Shown in pieces: positions 1,757 through 37,882 of a stretch of 64,000 bases of DNA. The stretch lies in sequence record NC_052654.1, one strand, 5' to 3'. The DNA is from Escherichia phage vB_EcoM-Ro121c4YLVW. The position numbers were made by a program, and so were the translations under genes. Numbering within the stretch: position 1 is the first letter of the stretch; every line of letters begins with the position of its first letter. Under the pieces are notes generated by a model. The model did not search any database, had not been told where the DNA came from, and worked only from the letters and a program-made list of their open reading frames with translations.

Positions 1757-1835
1757 TGGAGGCGGGAATCGGATTTGAACCGATGATCTCCAGCATATGA
1801 AACTGGCGAGGACGACCAGACTCCTCTATCCCGCT
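1757..1835 (-). tRNA. tRNA with anticodon CAU (Met or Ile2/lysidine)
   Basis: Hand fold: T-arm ATCGG-TTCAAAT-CCGAT, anticodon stem CCAGT/GCTGG, loop TTCATAT, CCA encoded; A1-C72 mismatch at acceptor end. Confidence 0.6.
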
Positions 1836-1841
1836 ATTATG

Positions 1842-1911
1842 TATCCCGTGCTGGATTCGAACCAGCATCACAATAAGCTGTGGAACTCTTATCCTGTAAG
1901 TCTAACGGGAA
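1842..1911 (-). tRNA. tRNA-like gene with non-canonical anticodon arm (4-bp stem CACA/TGTG with 6-nt loop); possible pseudo-tRNA
   Basis: Canonical T-arm GCTGG-TTCGAAT-CCAGC and 6-bp acceptor pairing, but no 5-bp stem / 7-nt loop anticodon arm can be drawn; about 70 nt. Confidence 0.35.
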
Positions 1912-1913
1912 AC

Positions 1914-1987
1914 TGGTTGTTTCGACAAGAATCGAACTTGTGTCTCACGATTATCAGTCGTGGGTTCTACCATTGAACTACGAAACA
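1914..1987 (-). tRNA. tRNA-Ile (anticodon GAU)
   Basis: Hand fold: acceptor TGTTTCG/CGAAACA, D-arm GTTC..GAAC, anticodon stem CACGA/TCGTG, loop CTGATAA, T-loop TTCGATT, CCA encoded. Confidence 0.7.
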
Positions 1988-1993
1988 TTTAAT

Positions 1994-2070
1994 TGGTCGG
2001 GACGGAGTGATTCGAACACTCGACCTCTCGCTCCCAAAGCGAGCGCACTACCAAGCTGTGCTACGTCCCG
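1994..2070 (-). tRNA. tRNA-Pro (anticodon UGG)
   Basis: Hand fold: acceptor CGGGACG/CGTCCCG, anticodon stem CTCGC/GCGAG, loop TTTGGGA, T-arm GAGTG-TTCGAAT-CACTC, CCA encoded. Confidence 0.7.
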
Positions 2071-2163
2071 TGATAACATTCTAAAGGTACACCGCAAAAG
2101 AAAGTGTTCGGCGGCTCCTCGTTTTTAACTTCACACTTAAGGTAGTGACTCACCTTTGTTATA

Positions 2164-2239
2164 TGGCTGGTCTGTCTGGATTTGAACCAAACCTACGACA
2201 GTCAAAGTGTCGTGTGCTACCGGACTACACTACAAACCA
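2164..2239 (-). tRNA. tRNA-Gln (anticodon UUG)
   Basis: Hand fold: acceptor TGGTTTG/CAGACCA, anticodon stem CGACA/TGTCG, loop CTTTGAC, T-loop TTCAAAT, CCA encoded, 76 nt. Confidence 0.65.
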
Positions 2240-2337
2240 ATAAATCATTTAATGAAGGGCAACCAGAAGAAGTGTGAGAGAAGGAGAAAACCATGAGTAA
2301 AAGAGAAAGTTTTCTGGCAACCCTTTATTAAATAATT

Positions 2338-2411
2338 TGGAGCGTTCTACGAGGATCGAACTCGTGCCGCCGACTTGGAAGGACGGAATGCTACCGCTAC
2401 ACCAAGAACGC
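2338..2411 (-). tRNA. tRNA-Gly (anticodon UCC)
   Basis: Hand fold: acceptor GCGTTCT/AGAACGC, T-arm ACGAG-TTCGATC-CTCGT, anticodon loop CTTCCAA (one T-T in stem), CCA encoded. Confidence 0.6.
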
Positions 2412-2422
2412 CATATATATTT

Positions 2423-2452
2423 ACTATACTACATTTTACTATTTGTTGTCAA
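2423..2452 (-). promoter_or_regulatory. sigma70-like promoter inside the tRNA cluster (TTGACA-N18-TATAGT on minus strand)
   Basis: Consensus -35 with near-consensus -10 read on minus strand, directly upstream of tRNA-Gly. Confidence 0.5.
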
Positions 2453-2725
2453 GACTTTTATTGATTGGGACAGTGACGAGTATCCCGTTGGGTGACTAGC
2501 CCTACGTTCGGTAAGCTAACTTAAAATAATACAAAACCAAAGTCAAATATTATTCTTCGTTGCTGTCGATGGGAGAGCCGCTTCTCATTTTGCCCCATCC
2601 AACCCTACTCCGGTCAAGTTTCGGGTGACTCTTTTTGTGATCAACACAATACTAAGAACACTGTCTTTCGAGCAGACCTTGTGCACAGGATACGACGATC
2701 AATCACAGTGCTCTTAATGTTGTGT
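2453..2725 (-). ncRNA. non-tRNA spacer inside tRNA operon; candidate stable small RNA(s)
   Basis: About 270 bp between tRNA-Thr and the internal promoter with no ORF and no T-loop motif; T4 carries non-tRNA stable RNAs in its tRNA region. Confidence 0.25.
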
Positions 2726-2800
2726 TGGTGCTCCCACACTGAATCGAACAGAGATCCACGGATTACAAAACCGTTGTAATAGCCATTATACTATAGGAGC
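2726..2800 (-). tRNA. tRNA-Thr (anticodon UGU)
   Basis: Hand fold: acceptor GCTCCTA/TGGGAGC (one G-U), anticodon stem ACGGT/TCCGT, loop TTTGTAA, T-loop TTCGATT, CCA encoded. Confidence 0.6.
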
Positions 2801-2806
2801 AATGCT

Positions 2807-2884
2807 GGGACTCGGCAGGATTCGATACCTGCAATTCCAGAAGCCTATTGGCGACTGGGGGGTTTACCTTAACTCTACAAGTCC
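2807..2884 (-). tRNA. tRNA-like gene with aberrant D/anticodon region (anticodon not assignable)
   Basis: Good acceptor pairing GGACTTG/CGAGTCC and T-arm GCAGG..CCTGC (8-nt loop TATCGAAT), but the central region (CCCCCC run) does not give a canonical anticodon arm; no CCA encoded. Confidence 0.3.
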
Positions 2885-2891
2885 ATAATTC

Positions 2892-2977
2892 TGGCGATGA
2901 GTATAGGATTCGAACCTATATTGTTCTTTCGAACACGGATTAACAGTCCGCCGCTTAAACCATTCAGCCAACTCATC
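2892..2977 (-). tRNA. type II (long variable arm) tRNA with anticodon GUU (Asn-decoding anticodon on a Tyr-like body)
   Basis: Hand fold: acceptor GATGAGT/ACTCATC, anticodon stem GCGGA/TCCGT, loop CTGTTAA, variable-arm hairpin GTTC-GAAA-GAAC, T-arm ATAGG-TTCGAAT-CCTAT, CCA encoded. Confidence 0.5.
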
Positions 2978-2983
2978 TTAATT

Positions 2984-3071
2984 TGGTGGTGAGTGATGGA
3001 GTCGAACCACCCGAATCGCAATGATAACAGATTTACAGTCTGCCCCGCTACCCCTACGGAATTAACTCACC
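2984..3071 (-). tRNA. tRNA-Tyr (anticodon GUA), type II
   Basis: Hand fold: acceptor GGTGAGT/ACTCACC, anticodon stem GCAGA/TCTGT, loop CTGTAAA, long variable arm, T-loop TTCGACT, CCA encoded. Confidence 0.6.
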
Positions 3072-3201
3072 TAAATACTAATATTTAAATTCTTTTTAAA
3101 ATAGCCAGTGTTCACACCACTAACTATGAGGTATCGGTAAAGTGGTTACCGCCACTTGCCGAAGATTTACTCTGCTAAAGTAAGCTACATTAAAAAGAAC
3201 T

Positions 3202-3287
3202 TGGCGGTAGATGTAGGACTCGAACCTACACGCCGTTTCCGACTACAGTTTAGCAAACTGTCGTGGCTACCATTTCACCAATCTACC
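3202..3287 (-). tRNA. tRNA-Ser (anticodon GCU), type II
   Basis: Hand fold: acceptor GGTAGAT/ATCTACC, anticodon stem ACAGT/ACTGT, loop TTGCTAA, long variable arm, T-arm TGTAGG-TTCGAGT-CCTACA, CCA encoded. Confidence 0.65.
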
Positions 3288-3292
3288 TAATC

Positions 3293-3383
3293 TGGCGGAA
3301 GGAGGGAGAGTCGAACTCCCAAGGCTCTTTCAAGCTCGGCGGTTTTCAAGACCGTTTTCGTCGCCACATCGATTTGCCCTTCC
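3293..3383 (-). tRNA. tRNA-Ser (anticodon UGA), type II
   Basis: Hand fold: acceptor GGAAGGG/TCCTTCC, anticodon stem CGGT/ACCG, loop CTTGAAA, long variable arm, T-arm GGGAG-TTCGACT-CTCCC, CCA encoded. Confidence 0.6.
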
Positions 3384-3617
3384 ATACTTATAATCTAACA
3401 TAAAATAATGTTTGTTGTCAATAGTTTTTTAAAACATTTTACCATGAATGGTGACTCCACCAACCCCCGTTCTCCACGAACGGTGCTCTTCGAGCATTTA
3501 TGTCTTCTAATATAACCGTGGCCTTTGTTTATAATGTCTGACATACTTGCCTCATTCTCTGCCACCATGATCAGTAGTGGGTTCAAATCACTTGAGCTAA
3601 TTCATGTTAAAATGTTC

Positions 3618-3692
3618 TGGTGTCTTTACAAGGAATCGAACCTTGACTAAGAGTTTAGAAGACTCCTGTGCTATCCATTACACCATAAAGAC
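3618..3692 (-). tRNA. tRNA-Arg (anticodon UCU)
   Basis: Hand fold: acceptor GTCTTTA/TAAAGAC, anticodon stem GGAGT/ACTCT, loop CTTCTAA, T-arm CAAGG-TTCGATT-CCTTG, CCA encoded. Confidence 0.7.
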
Positions 3693-3694
3693 TT

Positions 3695-3769
3695 TGGTGG
3701 CCCTGGCTGGTTTCGATCCAGCTACCTATCGGTTATGAGCCGACAGCTCTCCCATTGAGCTACAGGGCC
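3695..3769 (-). tRNA. tRNA with anticodon CAU (Met elongator or Ile2)
   Basis: Hand fold: acceptor GGCCCTG/CAGGGCC, D-arm GCTC-AATGGGAGA-GC, anticodon loop CTCATAA, T-arm GCTGG-ATCGAAA-CCAGC, CCA encoded. Confidence 0.65.
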
Positions 3770-33144: not shown

Positions 33145-33474
33145 ATGGAAATTACTACAGAACAAGCCCTTATCGACGAGGGTCGTAAAATCTTAGAAAA
33201 GTATTTAGGGGAGATTCATAAAACCCCTGGCTATTTGGGTTGGAGAATTGTTGAAGCTGTAGATTTCCTTCCTCGTAACAGTAAAAGCGTCGAAATGCGA
33301 TCTCTTTTCTTATTAGTAAAGGTGGACGGGGATACACCTTTTAAAGATGCCGCAGAACATATTGAAAAAGTTGAAGAGAAAGCTTATGCAGAATTTGCCG
33401 ATCTTGTTTTAGAACAAGAGATTGAAGGAAAGGTGAATATTTTTATTTTCTTAGATTTTGAGGAGGATAAGTGA
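33145..33474 (+). CDS. hypothetical protein
   Basis: ORF track. Confidence 0.45.
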   Translation: MEITTEQALIDEGRKILEKYLGEIHKTPGYLGWRIVEAVDFLPRNSKSVEMRSLFLLVKVDGDTPFKDAAEHIEKVEEKAYAEFADLVLEQEIEGKVNIFIFLDFEEDK

Positions 33475-34214
33475 TCATACACAGAGAAATTACTGTTAAA
33501 AGCGATCAAGATCTTTTTATAATTGGAGATCTACACGGTTGTTATAATTTGTATGAAAAAGGAAAGGCAAAGTTAGGTATCCGAGATACAGATGTGGTTG
33601 TATCTCTAGGAGATCTTACTGACCGTGGAAAGCAAAACTTTCGTTGTGTTTTAGAATTTACTCGTAAACACAATCGCTACGCTATTCGTGGCAATCATGA
33701 AGACATGATGATTAAAGGTATGCTGGAAGGAGATCGTAGCTACTACGAGTGTTGGTATCAAAATGGAGGATATACGGTCTTTGAAGAATGTGGTGAAGAA
33801 GGAGCTACAGCCTTAGCAATGATGACAGAAGATTTACCTGTTGTTCTCATTGTTAACTACAGAGGCATGAAACTTGCGTTTATTCATGGTGGGTATCCAT
33901 CTTCTTTGGAATATCTCCCTGTAACAGATATTCCAGAATACATTTCGAAGATGACAAAAACACAGGAAAACCGTTTTGCTGAAGCACTTATGTGGGACAG
34001 AGATATGGTAGACTGTGCTAAAGAGGGAATGAAACTTCCTGTTGTGATGGGTGTGGATTATGTGTTTCATGGACACTCTTATGTAAAAACACCTATTATC
34101 AATGCGAATCGTGTTTATATGGATACTGGATCTGTGTTCAATAATAACTTAACATTTGCTTATTTCGATATGGACGGTGGTCTTCAATTTTATTCAACTC
34201 TTGAGGAGGATTAA
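33471..34214 (+). CDS. PPP-family Ser/Thr protein phosphatase (lambda-phosphatase-like)
   Basis: GDLHG, GDLTDRG, GNHE metallophosphatase motifs. Confidence 0.7.
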   Translation: MIIHREITVKSDQDLFIIGDLHGCYNLYEKGKAKLGIRDTDVVVSLGDLTDRGKQNFRCVLEFTRKHNRYAIRGNHEDMMIKGMLEGDRSYYECWYQNGGYTVFEECGEEGATALAMMTEDLPVVLIVNYRGMKLAFIHGGYPSSLEYLPVTDIPEYISKMTKTQENRFAEALMWDRDMVDCAKEGMKLPVVMGVDYVFHGHSYVKTPIINANRVYMDTGSVFNNNLTFAYFDMDGGLQFYSTLEED

Positions 34215-34522
34215 TGTATAAGATTACAATTATTCAAAGTGTAGGTAATATCCGTAAAGAAGTTATCTTAGAAACAGAAGATGTTAATCTTGTTCGTGAG
34301 ATTGTTCTTAAGGAAGATAACCTGCAAGCTGTAGAATCAGATGCACCGAATCTTATGGTGGATCAAGAATATTCTGAACTTCGTCGTATTTTTGAAGAGA
34401 TTCAGAAGAAAGAAACACAACCTACCATAAAACCTTTTGGCCCTTATGATCCGAGCAATCCTAGCAGTCCTTGGATCATGAGAAATACGGAACCCTATAC
34501 ACCTTTTGAAATTACTTGTTGA
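34214..34522 (+). CDS. hypothetical protein
   Basis: ORF track. Confidence 0.4.
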   Translation: MYKITIIQSVGNIRKEVILETEDVNLVREIVLKEDNLQAVESDAPNLMVDQEYSELRRIFEEIQKKETQPTIKPFGPYDPSNPSSPWIMRNTEPYTPFEITC

Positions 34523-34529
34523 GGTGATT

Positions 34530-35111
34530 ATGGCAGAACTGTTCTATACGGGAGTTGGAAGTAGAGACATATCCGAAGAAGAGTGGGCTTTGATGGTAGG
34601 CATAGGGAAATGGCTTTCAAACCTTGGGTTTAAATTAAGGTCTGGGAAGGCAGAGGGTAGTGATTCTGCTTTTGAAACAGGTGTCCAAGAGTCTGAAAAT
34701 CCTACTAACAAGGAGATTTATGTTCCTTGGGAAAATTTCAAAGGTAATCAGATTCCAGGGGATGTTATTGTTCTTGCAAAACCAGATACAATGAACTATG
34801 CTATCTCTGTGCAATGGATCAAAGATGTTCACCCAGCCTATGAAAAGCTTAAGCAGGGTGCTAGAAAATTGCACCAACGTAATGTGCATCAAGTGTTAGG
34901 TAGAGATTTGGAGAATCCTGCTCCATCATGTTTCTTGTTGGCTTGTGCTAATACTGATAAACATGGAGATGCAAAAGGTGGAACAGCTACGGCTTGGAAG
35001 ATAGCTAAAGCCAATAATGTTCCTTGTTTAAACATTCGTGGGAAAACAAAACAAGAGATTTACGATTTTCTACGACCTTTGGTAATGAGGGCAATAACAA
35101 GTGATTCCTAA
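34530..35111 (+). CDS. Rossmann-like SLOG/DprA-like nucleotide-binding protein (tentative)
   Basis: GVGSR...SGKAEGSD glycine-rich pattern; start moved to Met after GAGGTG. Confidence 0.3.
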   Translation: MAELFYTGVGSRDISEEEWALMVGIGKWLSNLGFKLRSGKAEGSDSAFETGVQESENPTNKEIYVPWENFKGNQIPGDVIVLAKPDTMNYAISVQWIKDVHPAYEKLKQGARKLHQRNVHQVLGRDLENPAPSCFLLACANTDKHGDAKGGTATAWKIAKANNVPCLNIRGKTKQEIYDFLRPLVMRAITSDS

Positions 35112-35613
35112 ACGTAAACGTGGTGAACAAAGAACAAACTTGGCAGAAATCTTAGATTACAACATGGTTAATGATGTGACAAAAGAAATTCTGCCTGTTG
35201 TAGAAGATATTCTTCAAAGAGGGTTACGATTCTGCTCGGATCGGGTGCATTTCATGTGGACACATAAAAGTGACTCCGCTTTGAATTTCTATCCTTTGGA
35301 TTATACTCTGAACAATACAGAGATGAAAGATATCAACAAATACTTAATGGGATATAAAGATATAACCGAAACCGTTCTTGGAGAATTGGCAGAAATCTTG
35401 GCTAACGATATCCTTAGAAATATTAATAAGGCTCTTGACAGAAGCCCAGCAGGAGTAGTAGTATCTTTTGCTGTGCCAGATATGGTTAAATATGAGTCTA
35501 CAATACCTAATAAAGCTTATGCCTTTCTTCGGAGAGACGTTCGTGGAAATGTGTTGGAGATGGAGTCAAACTACAAGATTGAGGAGGTTTTATGGCAGAG
35601 TTCGGATCAGTAA
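35101..35613 (+). CDS. hypothetical protein (GTG start)
   Basis: ORF track. Confidence 0.4.
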   Translation: MIPKRKRGEQRTNLAEILDYNMVNDVTKEILPVVEDILQRGLRFCSDRVHFMWTHKSDSALNFYPLDYTLNNTEMKDINKYLMGYKDITETVLGELAEILANDILRNINKALDRSPAGVVVSFAVPDMVKYESTIPNKAYAFLRRDVRGNVLEMESNYKIEEVLWQSSDQ

Positions 35614-35882
35614 CAAGTTTTGAAAGTAACTTCGTTACCGCTTGGGAAGCTTGGGATGAAATGGGTGTTGGGGAACTTTATTTTTACAATGTAACACTAC
35701 GTCCAGAGTATGCTTACCTGGTACCAGAAGGAACAGTTCAAATTGGCATGTATCTGTCTTCTCAAGACGGTGTTGTTCAATTTGAGTTTTATTCAAACAC
35801 AACGGACAACGAATTTACATATCGTGCATTTCATGTCAACATGTCTTTAGGAGAGGAGAAATTTTATGACGACCAAGTTTAA
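35592..35882 (+). CDS. hypothetical protein
   Basis: ORF track. Confidence 0.4.
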   Translation: MAEFGSVTSFESNFVTAWEAWDEMGVGELYFYNVTLRPEYAYLVPEGTVQIGMYLSSQDGVVQFEFYSNTTDNEFTYRAFHVNMSLGEEKFYDDQV

Positions 35883-36063
35883 AACAGTAGAAGAAGCCGT
35901 AAAAGCAGCTTATGAGGCTTTAGCGGAAGCAGAGCAGTTAGCAGATGAGACTGGTAAAGGTTTCCGTTTCTCCCCTGAATATGGGATGGGTGGCTATTAT
36001 GATCCAGAAGATGAAAATGAGAATACTGGAACAAATTGGCATCCATCTTCTTTAAGTTGTTAA
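35866..36063 (+). CDS. small protein, C-terminal W-H-P-S-S-L-S-C family member 1
   Basis: ORF track; shares C-terminal WxSSxC tail with two downstream genes. Confidence 0.45.
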   Translation: MTTKFKTVEEAVKAAYEALAEAEQLADETGKGFRFSPEYGMGGYYDPEDENENTGTNWHPSSLSC

Positions 36064-36074
36064 TAGGAGGTAGA

Positions 36075-36350
36075 GTGGGAATCGAAGATATCAAAGGTTA
36101 TAAGGCGCATACTGACGATAAGATTGGCAAGGTTAACGCTATTAAAGATGCAGAAGAGCGTTTAGGTTTAATCTTCAAAGCTTTAGAGGAAGAGTATTGT
36201 GAAGCATATCATGGGTCTTTTGACGGCACAGAAAAAGAATTAGGTCTTGCATACGAACGTATTGATCAAATCCGTTGTGCTATTAGACATTTAAAAGAAG
36301 CTAGTATGTGGGCTTGTCGTTCAGTTTTCCAACCAGAGGAGAAATACTAA
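36075..36350 (+). CDS. hypothetical protein (GTG start)
   Basis: GTG after AGGAGG within ORF 36036..36350. Confidence 0.4.
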   Translation: MGIEDIKGYKAHTDDKIGKVNAIKDAEERLGLIFKALEEEYCEAYHGSFDGTEKELGLAYERIDQIRCAIRHLKEASMWACRSVFQPEEKY

Positions 36351-36568
36351 TGAGTGATCGTAATGTTGAAGAATTAACTGAAAAAGCCCAAGCTATTATG
36401 GCTTTAGTGGACGAACTTACAAAAGAAGCTGAAGATGCTGGTTTTGGTCTTAGTTTAGAAAATGACGCAATCTGTTTTGAAGATTGGCAATCCTCTTCTT
36501 GTTATGGTGAAGGTGATGATGGTTTCGTCGTTAATTCTCAAGGTGTTTGGCACAGTAGTAGCTGTTAA
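36350..36568 (+). CDS. small protein, C-terminal W-H-S-S-S-C family member 2
   Basis: Internal Met after GAGGAG. Confidence 0.45.
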   Translation: MSDRNVEELTEKAQAIMALVDELTKEAEDAGFGLSLENDAICFEDWQSSSCYGEGDDGFVVNSQGVWHSSSC

Positions 36569-36577
36569 GGAGAGATT

Positions 36578-36850
36578 GTGGAGTCTGAAGGCGAACTGCT
36601 GATAAAAAAGAAAGTTAAAGAGATGGAACAAGCACAAAGAAAGTTTCGTAAGGAGATTGAAGAACTTTGTGAACAGTTTCAGGAACAAGCTTGGATAGGT
36701 GACTACGGTAACGGAGAAACTTATTACCCTACAGGAACGCCAGCCGCAGATCACTATATTGATTTCATTTGTGAAGATTATGGTGTAGAGTTGGATGAAA
36801 ATGGTTTAACCACAAGAGGTGTTTGGATCTCTTCTTCCTCAATGTGTTAG
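36578..36850 (+). CDS. small protein, C-terminal W-I-S-S-S-S-M-C family member 3
   Basis: ORF track; GTG start after AAGGAGAG. Confidence 0.45.
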   Translation: MESEGELLIKKKVKEMEQAQRKFRKEIEELCEQFQEQAWIGDYGNGETYYPTGTPAADHYIDFICEDYGVELDENGLTTRGVWISSSSMC

Positions 36851-36858
36851 TAAATAAT

Positions 36859-36881
36859 AACCCGCTTCGGCGGGTTTTTTA
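36859..36881 (+). terminator. intrinsic terminator ACCCGC-TTCG-GCGGGT + TTTTTT
   Basis: Direct reading. Confidence 0.6.
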
Positions 36882-36910
36882 TTGACAGGAATCTGGAAGC
36901 TTGATAAACT
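36882..36910 (+). promoter_or_regulatory. sigma70-like promoter TTGACA-N17-TAAACT
   Basis: Direct reading. Confidence 0.45.
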
Positions 36911-36940: not shown

Positions 36941-37882
36941 ATGGTGTTAATTGGTAGCCGTGCATTGCAAATTCATGCTATGGACATGGGAAAAGACTTG
37001 TATCGCCCTTGTGTAGATTTAGATTACCTGTGTACAGAACAAGAGTGGGAAGAATTATCAAAAATGTTCTCTCAAGAGGAGTTTGTTGAACTTGTAGAAC
37101 GTAAAGGAAACAAAGGCCATGTCAAAATGATAGCTGGTGCACATTTGGAATACGATATTGCTTCTCAAGGAGATAGCACAGAAGCTTTGATTAGTTATTG
37201 TGAAGATTCTGATGATGTTCGTCGAACTTACGCTGGACATGTTGTTGCTCCTTTAGATGTGCTCTACCTTCTTAAAATGAGTCATCGTTTTAAAAAGGAT
37301 AGTCCTCACTTCTTTAAAACTATGAAAGATATTCATTTCATGCGGTCACTGGGCGCAAAGATCCCAGAAAATCTTAAGAGTATTTATGAGTTGCGTGAGA
37401 AAGAAACATACACTTACTCTCATCCGAACTTAAACGTAAAAAGTAAAGACTTTTTTAAAGGTGATGAGGTTCCGTATGTTTATGATCATGATTCTATCCA
37501 TGAAGCAATCGCGGTAATGGATGCTCCGGCATATAAATCTTATATGAAAGATGGAAGTGAAGTTATGACCAGCAAAGAAAAGTTTTTTGCTCAACCAAAA
37601 CATGTGCGCCTGTTAGGTGTTTATGAAGAAGCGTGTGTTTTGGCTTTGGAACGTTCACAAATTCCTTTCGGTGGAGAGATCGGAGGTCCAACCCCTAAGC
37701 AAAGTTTTATAATGGCTTTATCTAAAGTCTGCACATCCATCACTAGTGGTTGGTTTAGGGAATATGCTTGGGAAAACTTTTATGTTGTTATTAAGCTATA
37801 TGAAAACATGGGCGAAAACGACTATGTTGAACGTTTTAAAGCTAATCAACATGTAGTAAAGCCTTTTGAAGGAGGTTATTAA
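36941..37882 (+). CDS. hypothetical protein (313 aa)
   Basis: ORF track. Confidence 0.5.
   Translation: MVLIGSRALQIHAMDMGKDLYRPCVDLDYLCTEQEWEELSKMFSQEEFVELVERKGNKGHVKMIAGAHLEYDIASQGDSTEALISYCEDSDDVRRTYAGHVVAPLDVLYLLKMSHRFKKDSPHFFKTMKDIHFMRSLGAKIPENLKSIYELREKETYTYSHPNLNVKSKDFFKGDEVPYVYDHDSIHEAIAVMDAPAYKSYMKDGSEVMTSKEKFFAQPKHVRLLGVYEEACVLALERSQIPFGGEIGGPTPKQSFIMALSKVCTSITSGWFREYAWENFYVVIKLYENMGENDYVERFKANQHVVKPFEGGY

Follow-up and report, generated by a model that had tools for sequence, protein, structure and literature searches.

Pol-beta nucleotidyltransferases (NTases) transfer a nucleoside monophosphate to hydroxyl acceptors, and several described systems couple a small protein with such an enzyme or with another modifying enzyme. 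They provide the background for the locus considered here, a tandem array of small genes sharing a C-terminal tail that ends in cysteine, followed by an NTase-fold gene, in Escherichia phage vB_EcoM-Ro121c4YLVW (sequence record NC_052654.1; the whole stretch of 64 kb that was analysed is hereafter called the window). In the CitD/CitX and MdcC/MdcG pairs, an NTase-superfamily enzyme encoded nearby loads the invariant Ser of a small acidic protein with a phospho-linked group. In the clusters encoding ribosomally synthesized and post-translationally modified peptides (RiPPs), such as the class II lanthipeptides and prochlorosins, several precursor genes lie upstream of one modifying enzyme. In MenAT1, a small helical protein encoded upstream blocks the NTase (PMC10435456), and MenT-type NTase toxins can also phosphorylate active-site Ser/Thr (PMC11375011).

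The tail module, by which we mean the array together with the enzyme gene, shares with MenAT1 and AbiE the combination of a small protein and an NTase, the small protein being encoded upstream as in MenAT1. It differs from them in that its enzyme gave no match to Pfam DUF1814 at E <= 1 and has an additional domain of about 170 amino acids (aa) at its C-terminus, in that its tail proteins occur as 1-5 paralogues conserved at the C-terminal tail and not in the helix, and in that it is found in lytic phages, with no antitoxin homologous to MenA1, MenA3 or AbiEi found. By analogy, a small acidic protein with an invariant Ser and a nearby NTase-superfamily gene may recall CitD/CitX and MdcC/MdcG, but no sequence or fold relation to them was found, the tail motif lies at the extreme C-terminus with Cys last, and no citrate-lyase or malonate-decarboxylase genes are present. 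The 1-5 tandem small genes directly upstream of one same-strand enzyme gene, and the tail Ser and Cys placed a few residues apart as in lanthionine-forming pairs, could likewise be compared with RiPP clusters, although the tail family shows the reverse pattern, with an invariant C-terminal 'core' and a variable remainder, its products are folded proteins of 65-120 aa, and LanB/LanM/LanKC, radical-SAM and YcaO Pfam domains were not found in the neighbour genes. The Acb2/Vs.4 sponges are also small, abundant in large lytic phages and encoded in the same accessory regions, but the tail proteins show no sequence or fold similarity to them and lack the basic/aromatic pocket pattern known for sponges. 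When ubiquitin-like and Pup-like proteins were considered, no C-terminal Gly-Gly or Gly-Gly-Gln/Glu was found; the proteins end in S-x-x-C, and the neighbouring enzyme has an NTase fold, not one that is E1-like or glutamine synthetase-like. Overall, the module is most like a pair of a small protein and a MenT-like NTase, or an enzyme-plus-clients arrangement, and on the features compared it does not pass as a member of any of them.

Three paralogous genes with a common C-terminal tail

The window is a genome segment of a Phapecoctavirus (Stephanstirmvirinae); a 4-kb stretch of it that was tested is 100% identical to Escherichia phage vB_EcoM-Ro121lw and is covered to at least 80% at high identity by 63 phage records. 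According to the listing of open reading frames (ORFs) and the sequence, four plus-strand genes, tightly packed and with good ribosome-binding sites, occupy positions 35866-36850, and the enzyme gene follows them:

35866..36063, plus strand: tail-family gene A, 65 aa, minimal 'YGMGG' subtype, PHROG 899
36075..36350, plus strand: Vs.4/Acb2 homologue, 91 aa, between A and C, without the tail motif
36350..36568, plus strand: tail-family gene C, 72 aa, motif present twice, PHROG 899
36578..36850, plus strand: tail-family gene D, 90 aa, GTG start, PHROG 899
36941..37882, plus strand: DUF7277+DUF7275 enzyme gene, 313 aa, NTase fold, candidate common partner of the tail proteins

The RefSeq calls in phage Mt1B1_P17 (99.7% identical) agree with the array coordinates, and all of them are annotated as 'hypothetical'. 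The original prediction, made from the letters of the window, had reported three genes sharing a Cys-containing tail, the first two of them separated by a gene lacking the motif, and both observations were borne out. Protein A consists of an amphipathic helix, F-x-F, YGMGGYY and then the C-terminal NWHPSSLSC-COOH (TGTNWHPSSLSC; tail codons 36037-36060). Protein C ends in SQGVWHSSSC, with the terminal VWHSSSC-COOH at 36548-36565, and carries an internal second copy of the motif, DWQSSSC-YGEG, at 36485-36502. Protein D contains GDYGNGETYYP and ends in GVWISSSSMC-COOH (TRGVWISSSSMC; tail codons 36824-36847). When the 64 kb were divided into stop-to-stop ORF segments and the 1093 of them with 30 aa or more were searched, the pattern W-x-[SAPTN]-S-x(1-4)-C at the C-terminus was found in A, C and D alone. 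Chance similarity was thus rejected, as the tail is present in only three of the 1093 window ORFs and is family-wide.

Each of the three proteins independently matched PHROG 899, a family without assigned function (E 1.2e-12 for A, 1.4e-05 for C and 5.1e-14 for D), and all three matches reach the last profile positions. Protein A also matched a family hidden Markov model (HMM) built from an alignment from which it is absent (A7), with an E value of 4.5e-17. The order of a helix and then F-x-F...YGxGxTY(Y/F) is present in A (FRFSPEYGMGGYY) and D (AWIGDYGNGETYY), and C has a variant of the YGxGxTY region (ICFEDWQSSSCYGEGDDGF) which it has in common with its T4-like counterpart. On this sequence evidence A, C and D are true paralogues. 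Each of them has its own counterpart subtype in T4-like phages, A matching Enterobacter phage Entb_45 gp193 in the YGMGG region and C matching Entb_45 gp192, which has the same double motif (BLASTP E 3e-10), and this indicates that the paralogues are old and have been kept separately. No Pfam or NCBIfam model was matched by A, C or D, and PDB sequence-profile searches with the tail family matched nothing meaningful.

Two upstream ORFs were examined as possible degenerate members, 35101-35613 (ending LWQSSDQ) and 34214-34522 (ending ...PFEITC), and both were rejected because neither matched the family HMM at E <= 10; the homologues of the 170-aa upstream ORF in the relatives L004, L005 and L007 (numbers of the fetched loci) have no tail. 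In RB69, the counterpart of the D subtype (L002 3995-4301) is apparently split by a frameshift into ORF139c, which ends in YYPKGEIVSQWYEK, and ORF138c, whose reading frame ends in GAWVSSPALC; the split reflects either a pseudogene or an error made in the sequencing or annotation of the reference genome.

Conservation of the tail across phages

A sensitive search seeded with A, C, D and their first matches gave 85 homologues, and an exhaustive profile search of 1.84 billion representatives gave 243 clusters (50% identity) at E <= 1e-3, with 127 of 139 new representatives ending in Cys. By tblastn with one tail member as the query, 437 phage records were found, including phages of Escherichia, Aeromonas, Enterobacter, Klebsiella, Shigella, Citrobacter and Serratia. 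The original prediction would have been undermined by loss of the motif in homologues from related phages; instead, the tail is kept in homologues from unrelated phage groups. The invariant columns of a 75-sequence alignment are only W, S, S and the terminal C, the same columns being invariant in a 31-sequence alignment; the Y, G, G, T and Y positions within YGxGxTY are nearly invariant, as is the G that stands two positions ahead of W. Many family members have extra internal W-(D/E/N)-S-S units. The conserved tail, as the alignments indicate, is the defining feature of a phage-restricted family of small acidic proteins with 1-5 paralogues per locus.

In 188 distinct tail ORFs taken from the fetched loci, W and the final Cys are most often 7 residues apart (145 ORFs) and otherwise 5 (37 ORFs) or 8 (6 ORFs), and Cys is the last residue in every one. 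A variable distance with Cys always last suggests that the free end matters and not packing alone. The possibility of selenocysteine or read-through at the end was rejected, since the stop codon after Cys is TAA in 151 of the 188 and not TGA. The members of both the tail and the enzyme families that were seen are annotated as hypothetical or are mis-annotated, save two Acinetobacter enzyme genes ('putative nucleotidyltransferase'), and no mention of PHROG 899, DUF7275, the RB69 ORFs or the tail motif turned up in a literature search.

An AlphaFold2 (AF2) model of D on the family alignment had a mean predicted local distance difference test score (pLDDT) of 95.3. In it, a helix at 4-34 is followed by short strands at 38-40 and 47-50 and by two short helices, and the chain ends with a strand at 82-85 (VWIS) and then a helical turn at 86-89. 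The tail would therefore be the last strand and helical turn of a small folded domain, not a loose tag, and the domain holds a second conserved motif, YGxGxTYY; this setting of the tail, like the identity of the gene between A and C, had been missed by the original prediction. Comparison of the D model with the PDB gave no fold match. The original prediction had described acidic and helical N-terminal halves; A, C and D are acidic as whole proteins (isoelectric points of 4.05-4.40), and each of the three would have a long N-terminal helix, as modelled for D, and a small beta unit with YGxGxTYY ahead of the tail.

Two explanations of the invariant Cys can be weighed on these data. In the first, the terminal Cys thiolate and carboxylate of several subunits or paralogues would form a metal site or an intersubunit disulfide, with Trp and Ser shaping the site. 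A single invariant terminal Cys at variable spacing from the W-x-S-S core would suit such an intermolecular site, and long amphipathic helices could drive oligomerisation, but conserved His, Asp or second Cys ligands are absent from the alignments and the linkage to the enzyme described below would go unexplained, so that we consider this explanation very unlikely; an intramolecular metal site is not supported, only one Cys being invariant. The second would make the terminal Cys a lipidation site, or the tail a signal directing the proteins to membrane or virion, as the original prediction had suggested in part. A conserved terminal Cys is its sole support. Against it, Cys is the last residue and not at -4 as in CaaX, and follows S, M or a polar residue; the proteins are soluble and acidic and have neither a signal peptide nor a hydrophobic segment; the nearby genes encode no prenyl or acyl transferase; and the array lies among early/accessory genes and not structural genes. 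We find lipidation or sorting scarcely credible.

Linkage of the tail genes and the enzyme gene

The original prediction had also suggested recognition of the tails by a common partner, for which the downstream MenT-like NTase-fold gene is now a concrete candidate, linked to the tail genes in both search directions. Its interpretation is thus supported with respect to paralogy, the tail and a common partner, and not supported with respect to lipidation or targeting and an intramolecular metal site. In RB69 and Entb_45, one small unrelated ORF separates 3-5 tandem tail genes from a homologue of the enzyme gene, which lies some hundreds of bases downstream of them. Loci were then recruited separately by alignments of the YGMGG tail subfamily and of the enzyme. 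Recruitment by the enzyme only gave 59 IMG/VR viral loci, with identity down to 38%, and 51 of these had 1-5 same-strand tail ORFs within 3.5 kb upstream; the tail-pattern ORFs in the 59 loci fell in this upstream same-strand zone in 151 of 157 cases, against a background of 13,052 ORF segments. In three of the eight loci counted as negative, a variant tail (NWDGSSC, EWYESRC or DWDVSWC) is encoded right beside the enzyme gene, and another of them, L058, has two tail ORFs just downstream of it. In the opposite direction, 49 of the 52 loci recruited by the YGMGG subtype have a same-strand enzyme gene downstream, and in the remaining three the contig edge is reached less than 900 nt after the tail gene. 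By tblastn, the enzyme was found in 117 of 119 loci.

The pair is kept in differing surroundings. It lies between e.3 and e.2 in Tevenvirinae (RB69, Entb_45) and between gp41 and gp61 in Acinetobacter phage Berthold, and in other contigs, including those of jumbo phages of more than 350 kb, it adjoins genes for ribonucleotide reductase or glutaredoxin, or tRNA clusters. Most other neighbours in the window are common only to 5-9 rV5-like loci, the exceptions being the Acb2 gene (16 loci) and a lambda-type phosphatase gene (15 loci). Tail genes without the enzyme were never seen, and the enzyme without tails was seen in L008-10, L038 and an actinophage branch, an asymmetry which fits clients that need the enzyme. 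A cellular origin was rejected, since one scan of 185,579 species genomes with two enzyme peptide patterns gave a single match, a contig of a metagenome-assembled genome.

The linkage can be set against the possibility that the tail proteins are independent anti-defence proteins (sponges, mimics or inhibitors), with the tail as a binding or structural motif and the adjacency to the enzyme reflecting a shared hyperplastic accessory region. In its favour, the proteins are small and acidic, are present in several copies and are encoded in an accessory region; the array has been entered by a bona fide sponge gene, the tail is built into the fold in the AF2 model, and a terminator-like and a promoter-like element stand between D and the enzyme gene. 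Hitch-hiking of this kind, however, leaves the two-way linkage, the constant order and strand and the differing flanks unexplained, most other window neighbours are not co-conserved beyond rV5-like loci, and known sponges and anti-defence families show no fold or sequence similarity to the tail proteins. Independent action of the tail proteins is, in our judgement, unlikely.

Several observations were made on unusual members of the enzyme family. Streptomyces phage Annadreamy, Gordonia phage Smoothie and Vibrio phage K406 encode distant DUF7275/DUF7277 enzymes (L116 4100-4792, L117 4103-4863 and L119 4174-4539), which have no tail genes beside them and are directly followed by 1-2 copies of another small conserved protein with the motif ...F-x-K-x-G-Y-Y-x-S-W/Y...D-G...E-V-x-P-x-x-K-x-I-T-x-Y. 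Homology between this protein and the tail family was rejected (hhalign probability 1%), and the enzyme family may pair with different small partners in different branches. In L058 (7410-9911), the DUF7275 protein starts with MSHRFKK and lacks the NTase domain; it is preceded by a 132-aa P-loop ORF (GAPGTGKT) and followed by the two tail-like ORFs, ending YWQSSRC and VWYSSRC. This arrangement may represent a swap of the NTase domain for a kinase-like partner, or an assembly artefact.

The downstream enzyme

The enzyme encoded at 36941-37882 has the Pfam domains DUF7277 and DUF7275, and tblastn with it gave 713 phage records; no match was found among PDB sequences. The closest structures to its AF2 model (pLDDT 86) were MenT1 (score 11.7), TglT (10.2), ANT(2'') (9.9), Megavirus poly(A) polymerase (9.4), MenT4 (8.9) and LnuA (8.6), and the N-terminal part is, as modelled, of the Pol-beta-type NTase fold. 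In 45 diverse homologues the catalytic GS..DxD..E motif is invariant (G5, S6, D26, D28 and E70), so that the NTase is apparently active, its catalytic motif being intact. The helical C-terminal domain has invariant residues of its own, including H115, R116, K119, D182, H183, D184, H187, E229, E230, E237, R238 and a CTSITSGWFRE block.

The fold also agrees with a toxin-antitoxin-like arrangement, in which the enzyme would be a MenT-like tRNA-modifying NTase and the small helical proteins its inhibitors or regulators, like MenA1 for MenT1, timing or restraining its action on host or phage tRNAs. The proximity of tRNA genes in 18 of 70 loci agrees weakly with such a role. The family invariance, however, lies in the C-terminal tail, whereas the 68-aa MenA1 functions through its helix and has a dispensable or disordered C-terminus; one inhibitor would be enough, and up to five long-kept paralogues per locus would not be expected; and the occurrence of the enzyme without tails, but never of tails without the enzyme, is the reverse of toxin-antitoxin logic. 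In addition, the tail profiles A3 and A7 list no MenA1 or AbiEi chain among PDB sequences at E <= 10, and the enzyme gave no DUF1814 match at the threshold given above. An inhibitory role for the tail proteins therefore appears improbable to us.

The positions of tRNA genes were recorded within 8 kb of the module and are of interest because the closest structural relatives of the enzyme, the MenT toxins, act on tRNA 3' ends. We regard the result as 'suggestive but not compelling'. Most of the 18 loci are T4-like-sized contigs with a tRNA cluster 4-7 kb upstream, and in several non-T4-like contigs tRNA genes abut the module (L038 6612-7564, L046 7293-7384, L056 6741-6894 and 8748-8822, and L068 7836-7908). 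In the window, a cluster of 10 tRNA genes (1757-3769, minus strand) lies 32 kb from the module on the opposite strand.

The tail proteins as possible clients of the enzyme

The explanation we favour, with slightly less than even confidence, is that A, C and D are clients of the downstream NTase-fold enzyme and that the invariant tail is the shared element which the enzyme recognises or uses as an acceptor. It is the simplest account given the near-obligate adjacency in fixed order, the long-kept paralogues, the Ser-rich invariant tail ending in Cys, the apparently active NTase and the asymmetric dependence. A single enzyme would recognise the tail G-x-W-x-S-S-S-x(0-3)-Cys-COOH of all the paralogues, and their diverged bodies would give each a separate job, probably in counter-defence or host takeover, a role suggested by the early/accessory gene setting and the Acb2 insertion. 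The tail would enter the active site, where a Ser hydroxyl would accept a nucleotidyl or phosphoryl group, and the terminal Cys thiol or carboxylate may act in a follow-up step. The use of hydroxyls by Pol-beta NTases and the phosphorylation of Ser/Thr by MenT would make the tail Ser a natural acceptor. Beyond the gene linkage and the folds, the physical interaction, the tail as its interface, any covalent modification and the biological role are inferred.

We are rather doubtful about the more specific proposal that the module is a post-translational modification system of an undescribed kind, in which a MenT-like enzyme with a novel C-terminal domain modifies the tail of 1-5 clients. The chemistry could be O-nucleotidylylation or phosphorylation of Ser, or activation and elimination of Ser followed by attack of the terminal Cys to give a lanthionine-like staple. 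Once modified, the clients would be equipped for different tasks in host takeover or anti-defence.

A number of points weigh against recognition of the tail proteins as clients. The contact between them and the enzyme is deduced from linkage and folds, and the proteins nearest to the enzyme in structure have tRNA or small molecules as their substrates, not other proteins. The tail is inside the fold in the AF2 model of D, so that its conservation may be structural and an active site may be out of its reach, and the client scheme gives the invariant terminal Cys no demonstrated role. In distant branches of its family, the enzyme is paired with another kind of small protein. Many of the loci come from related T4-like phages, so that fewer independent events are represented than the locus counts suggest, and the linkage argument hence rests on the diversity of contexts and not on raw counts. 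Finally, co-transcription of D and the enzyme gene is not obvious in view of two elements between them, a strong terminator-like hairpin of the sequence AACCCGC-TTCG-GCGGGTT followed by a T-run, and a promoter-like site adjoining it on the 3' side before the enzyme gene:

36859..36876, plus strand: intrinsic-terminator-like hairpin and T-run, directly 3' of gene D
36882..36910, plus strand: sigma-70-like promoter, TTGACA, 17 nt, TAAACT, with TG; consensus match only

Going by these sequence features, the window phage may transcribe the tail genes separately from the enzyme gene.

Neighbouring genes

The product of 36075-36350 matched Pfam PF24729 (E 5.8e-17) and, by phmmer against the PDB, 7UQ2 (T4 Vs.4; E 1.4e-28); by sequence it is a close homologue of T4 Vs.4, an Acb2-type cyclic-nucleotide sponge directed against the cyclic oligonucleotide-based antiphage signaling system (CBASS). 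It alone matched the Acb2_Tad1 hairpin domain, with no match by A, C or D. In the relative L004 (77% identical), A, C and D are contiguous, with no Acb2 gene between them, and the gene was not found within the loci of the other fetched rV5-like relatives L005-L007, while T4-like loci have an Acb2 homologue about 5-7 kb downstream of the enzyme gene instead. The absence of Acb2 from the array in L004-L007 indicates a lineage-specific insertion in the window phage.

Two further genes upstream of the array were noted. A lambda/NinI-type Ser/Thr metallophosphatase gene (33471-34214, plus strand) lies close to the module, no more than a few kb away, in 15 of the 119 loci, among them L013, L027, L056, L066, L079, L094 and L107, which include jumbo-phage contigs unrelated to the window clade. 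It could be a third, looser component alongside the Ser-rich tail, or a coincidence. A 'DprA-like' gene (34531-35111, plus strand), which resembles a stand-alone Rossmann-type (DprA/SLOG-like) nucleotide-binding domain (FYTGVGSR...GxxxGSD), is conserved only in the rV5-like clade (9 loci).

Significance

Hundreds of sequenced phages of the T4-like, rV5-like, Acinetobacter, Aeromonas and jumbo groups carry the tail family and the enzyme. Their near-obligate pairing, together with multi-copy, reactive-looking tails (Ser-Ser-Ser...Cys-COOH) beside an NTase, makes an enzyme-client or regulatory system a directly testable hypothesis, for which RB69 and other E. coli phages can serve as models. The Acb2 gene inside the array and the accessory location make a role in counter-defence plausible, and the module is thus a candidate for anti-defence discovery.

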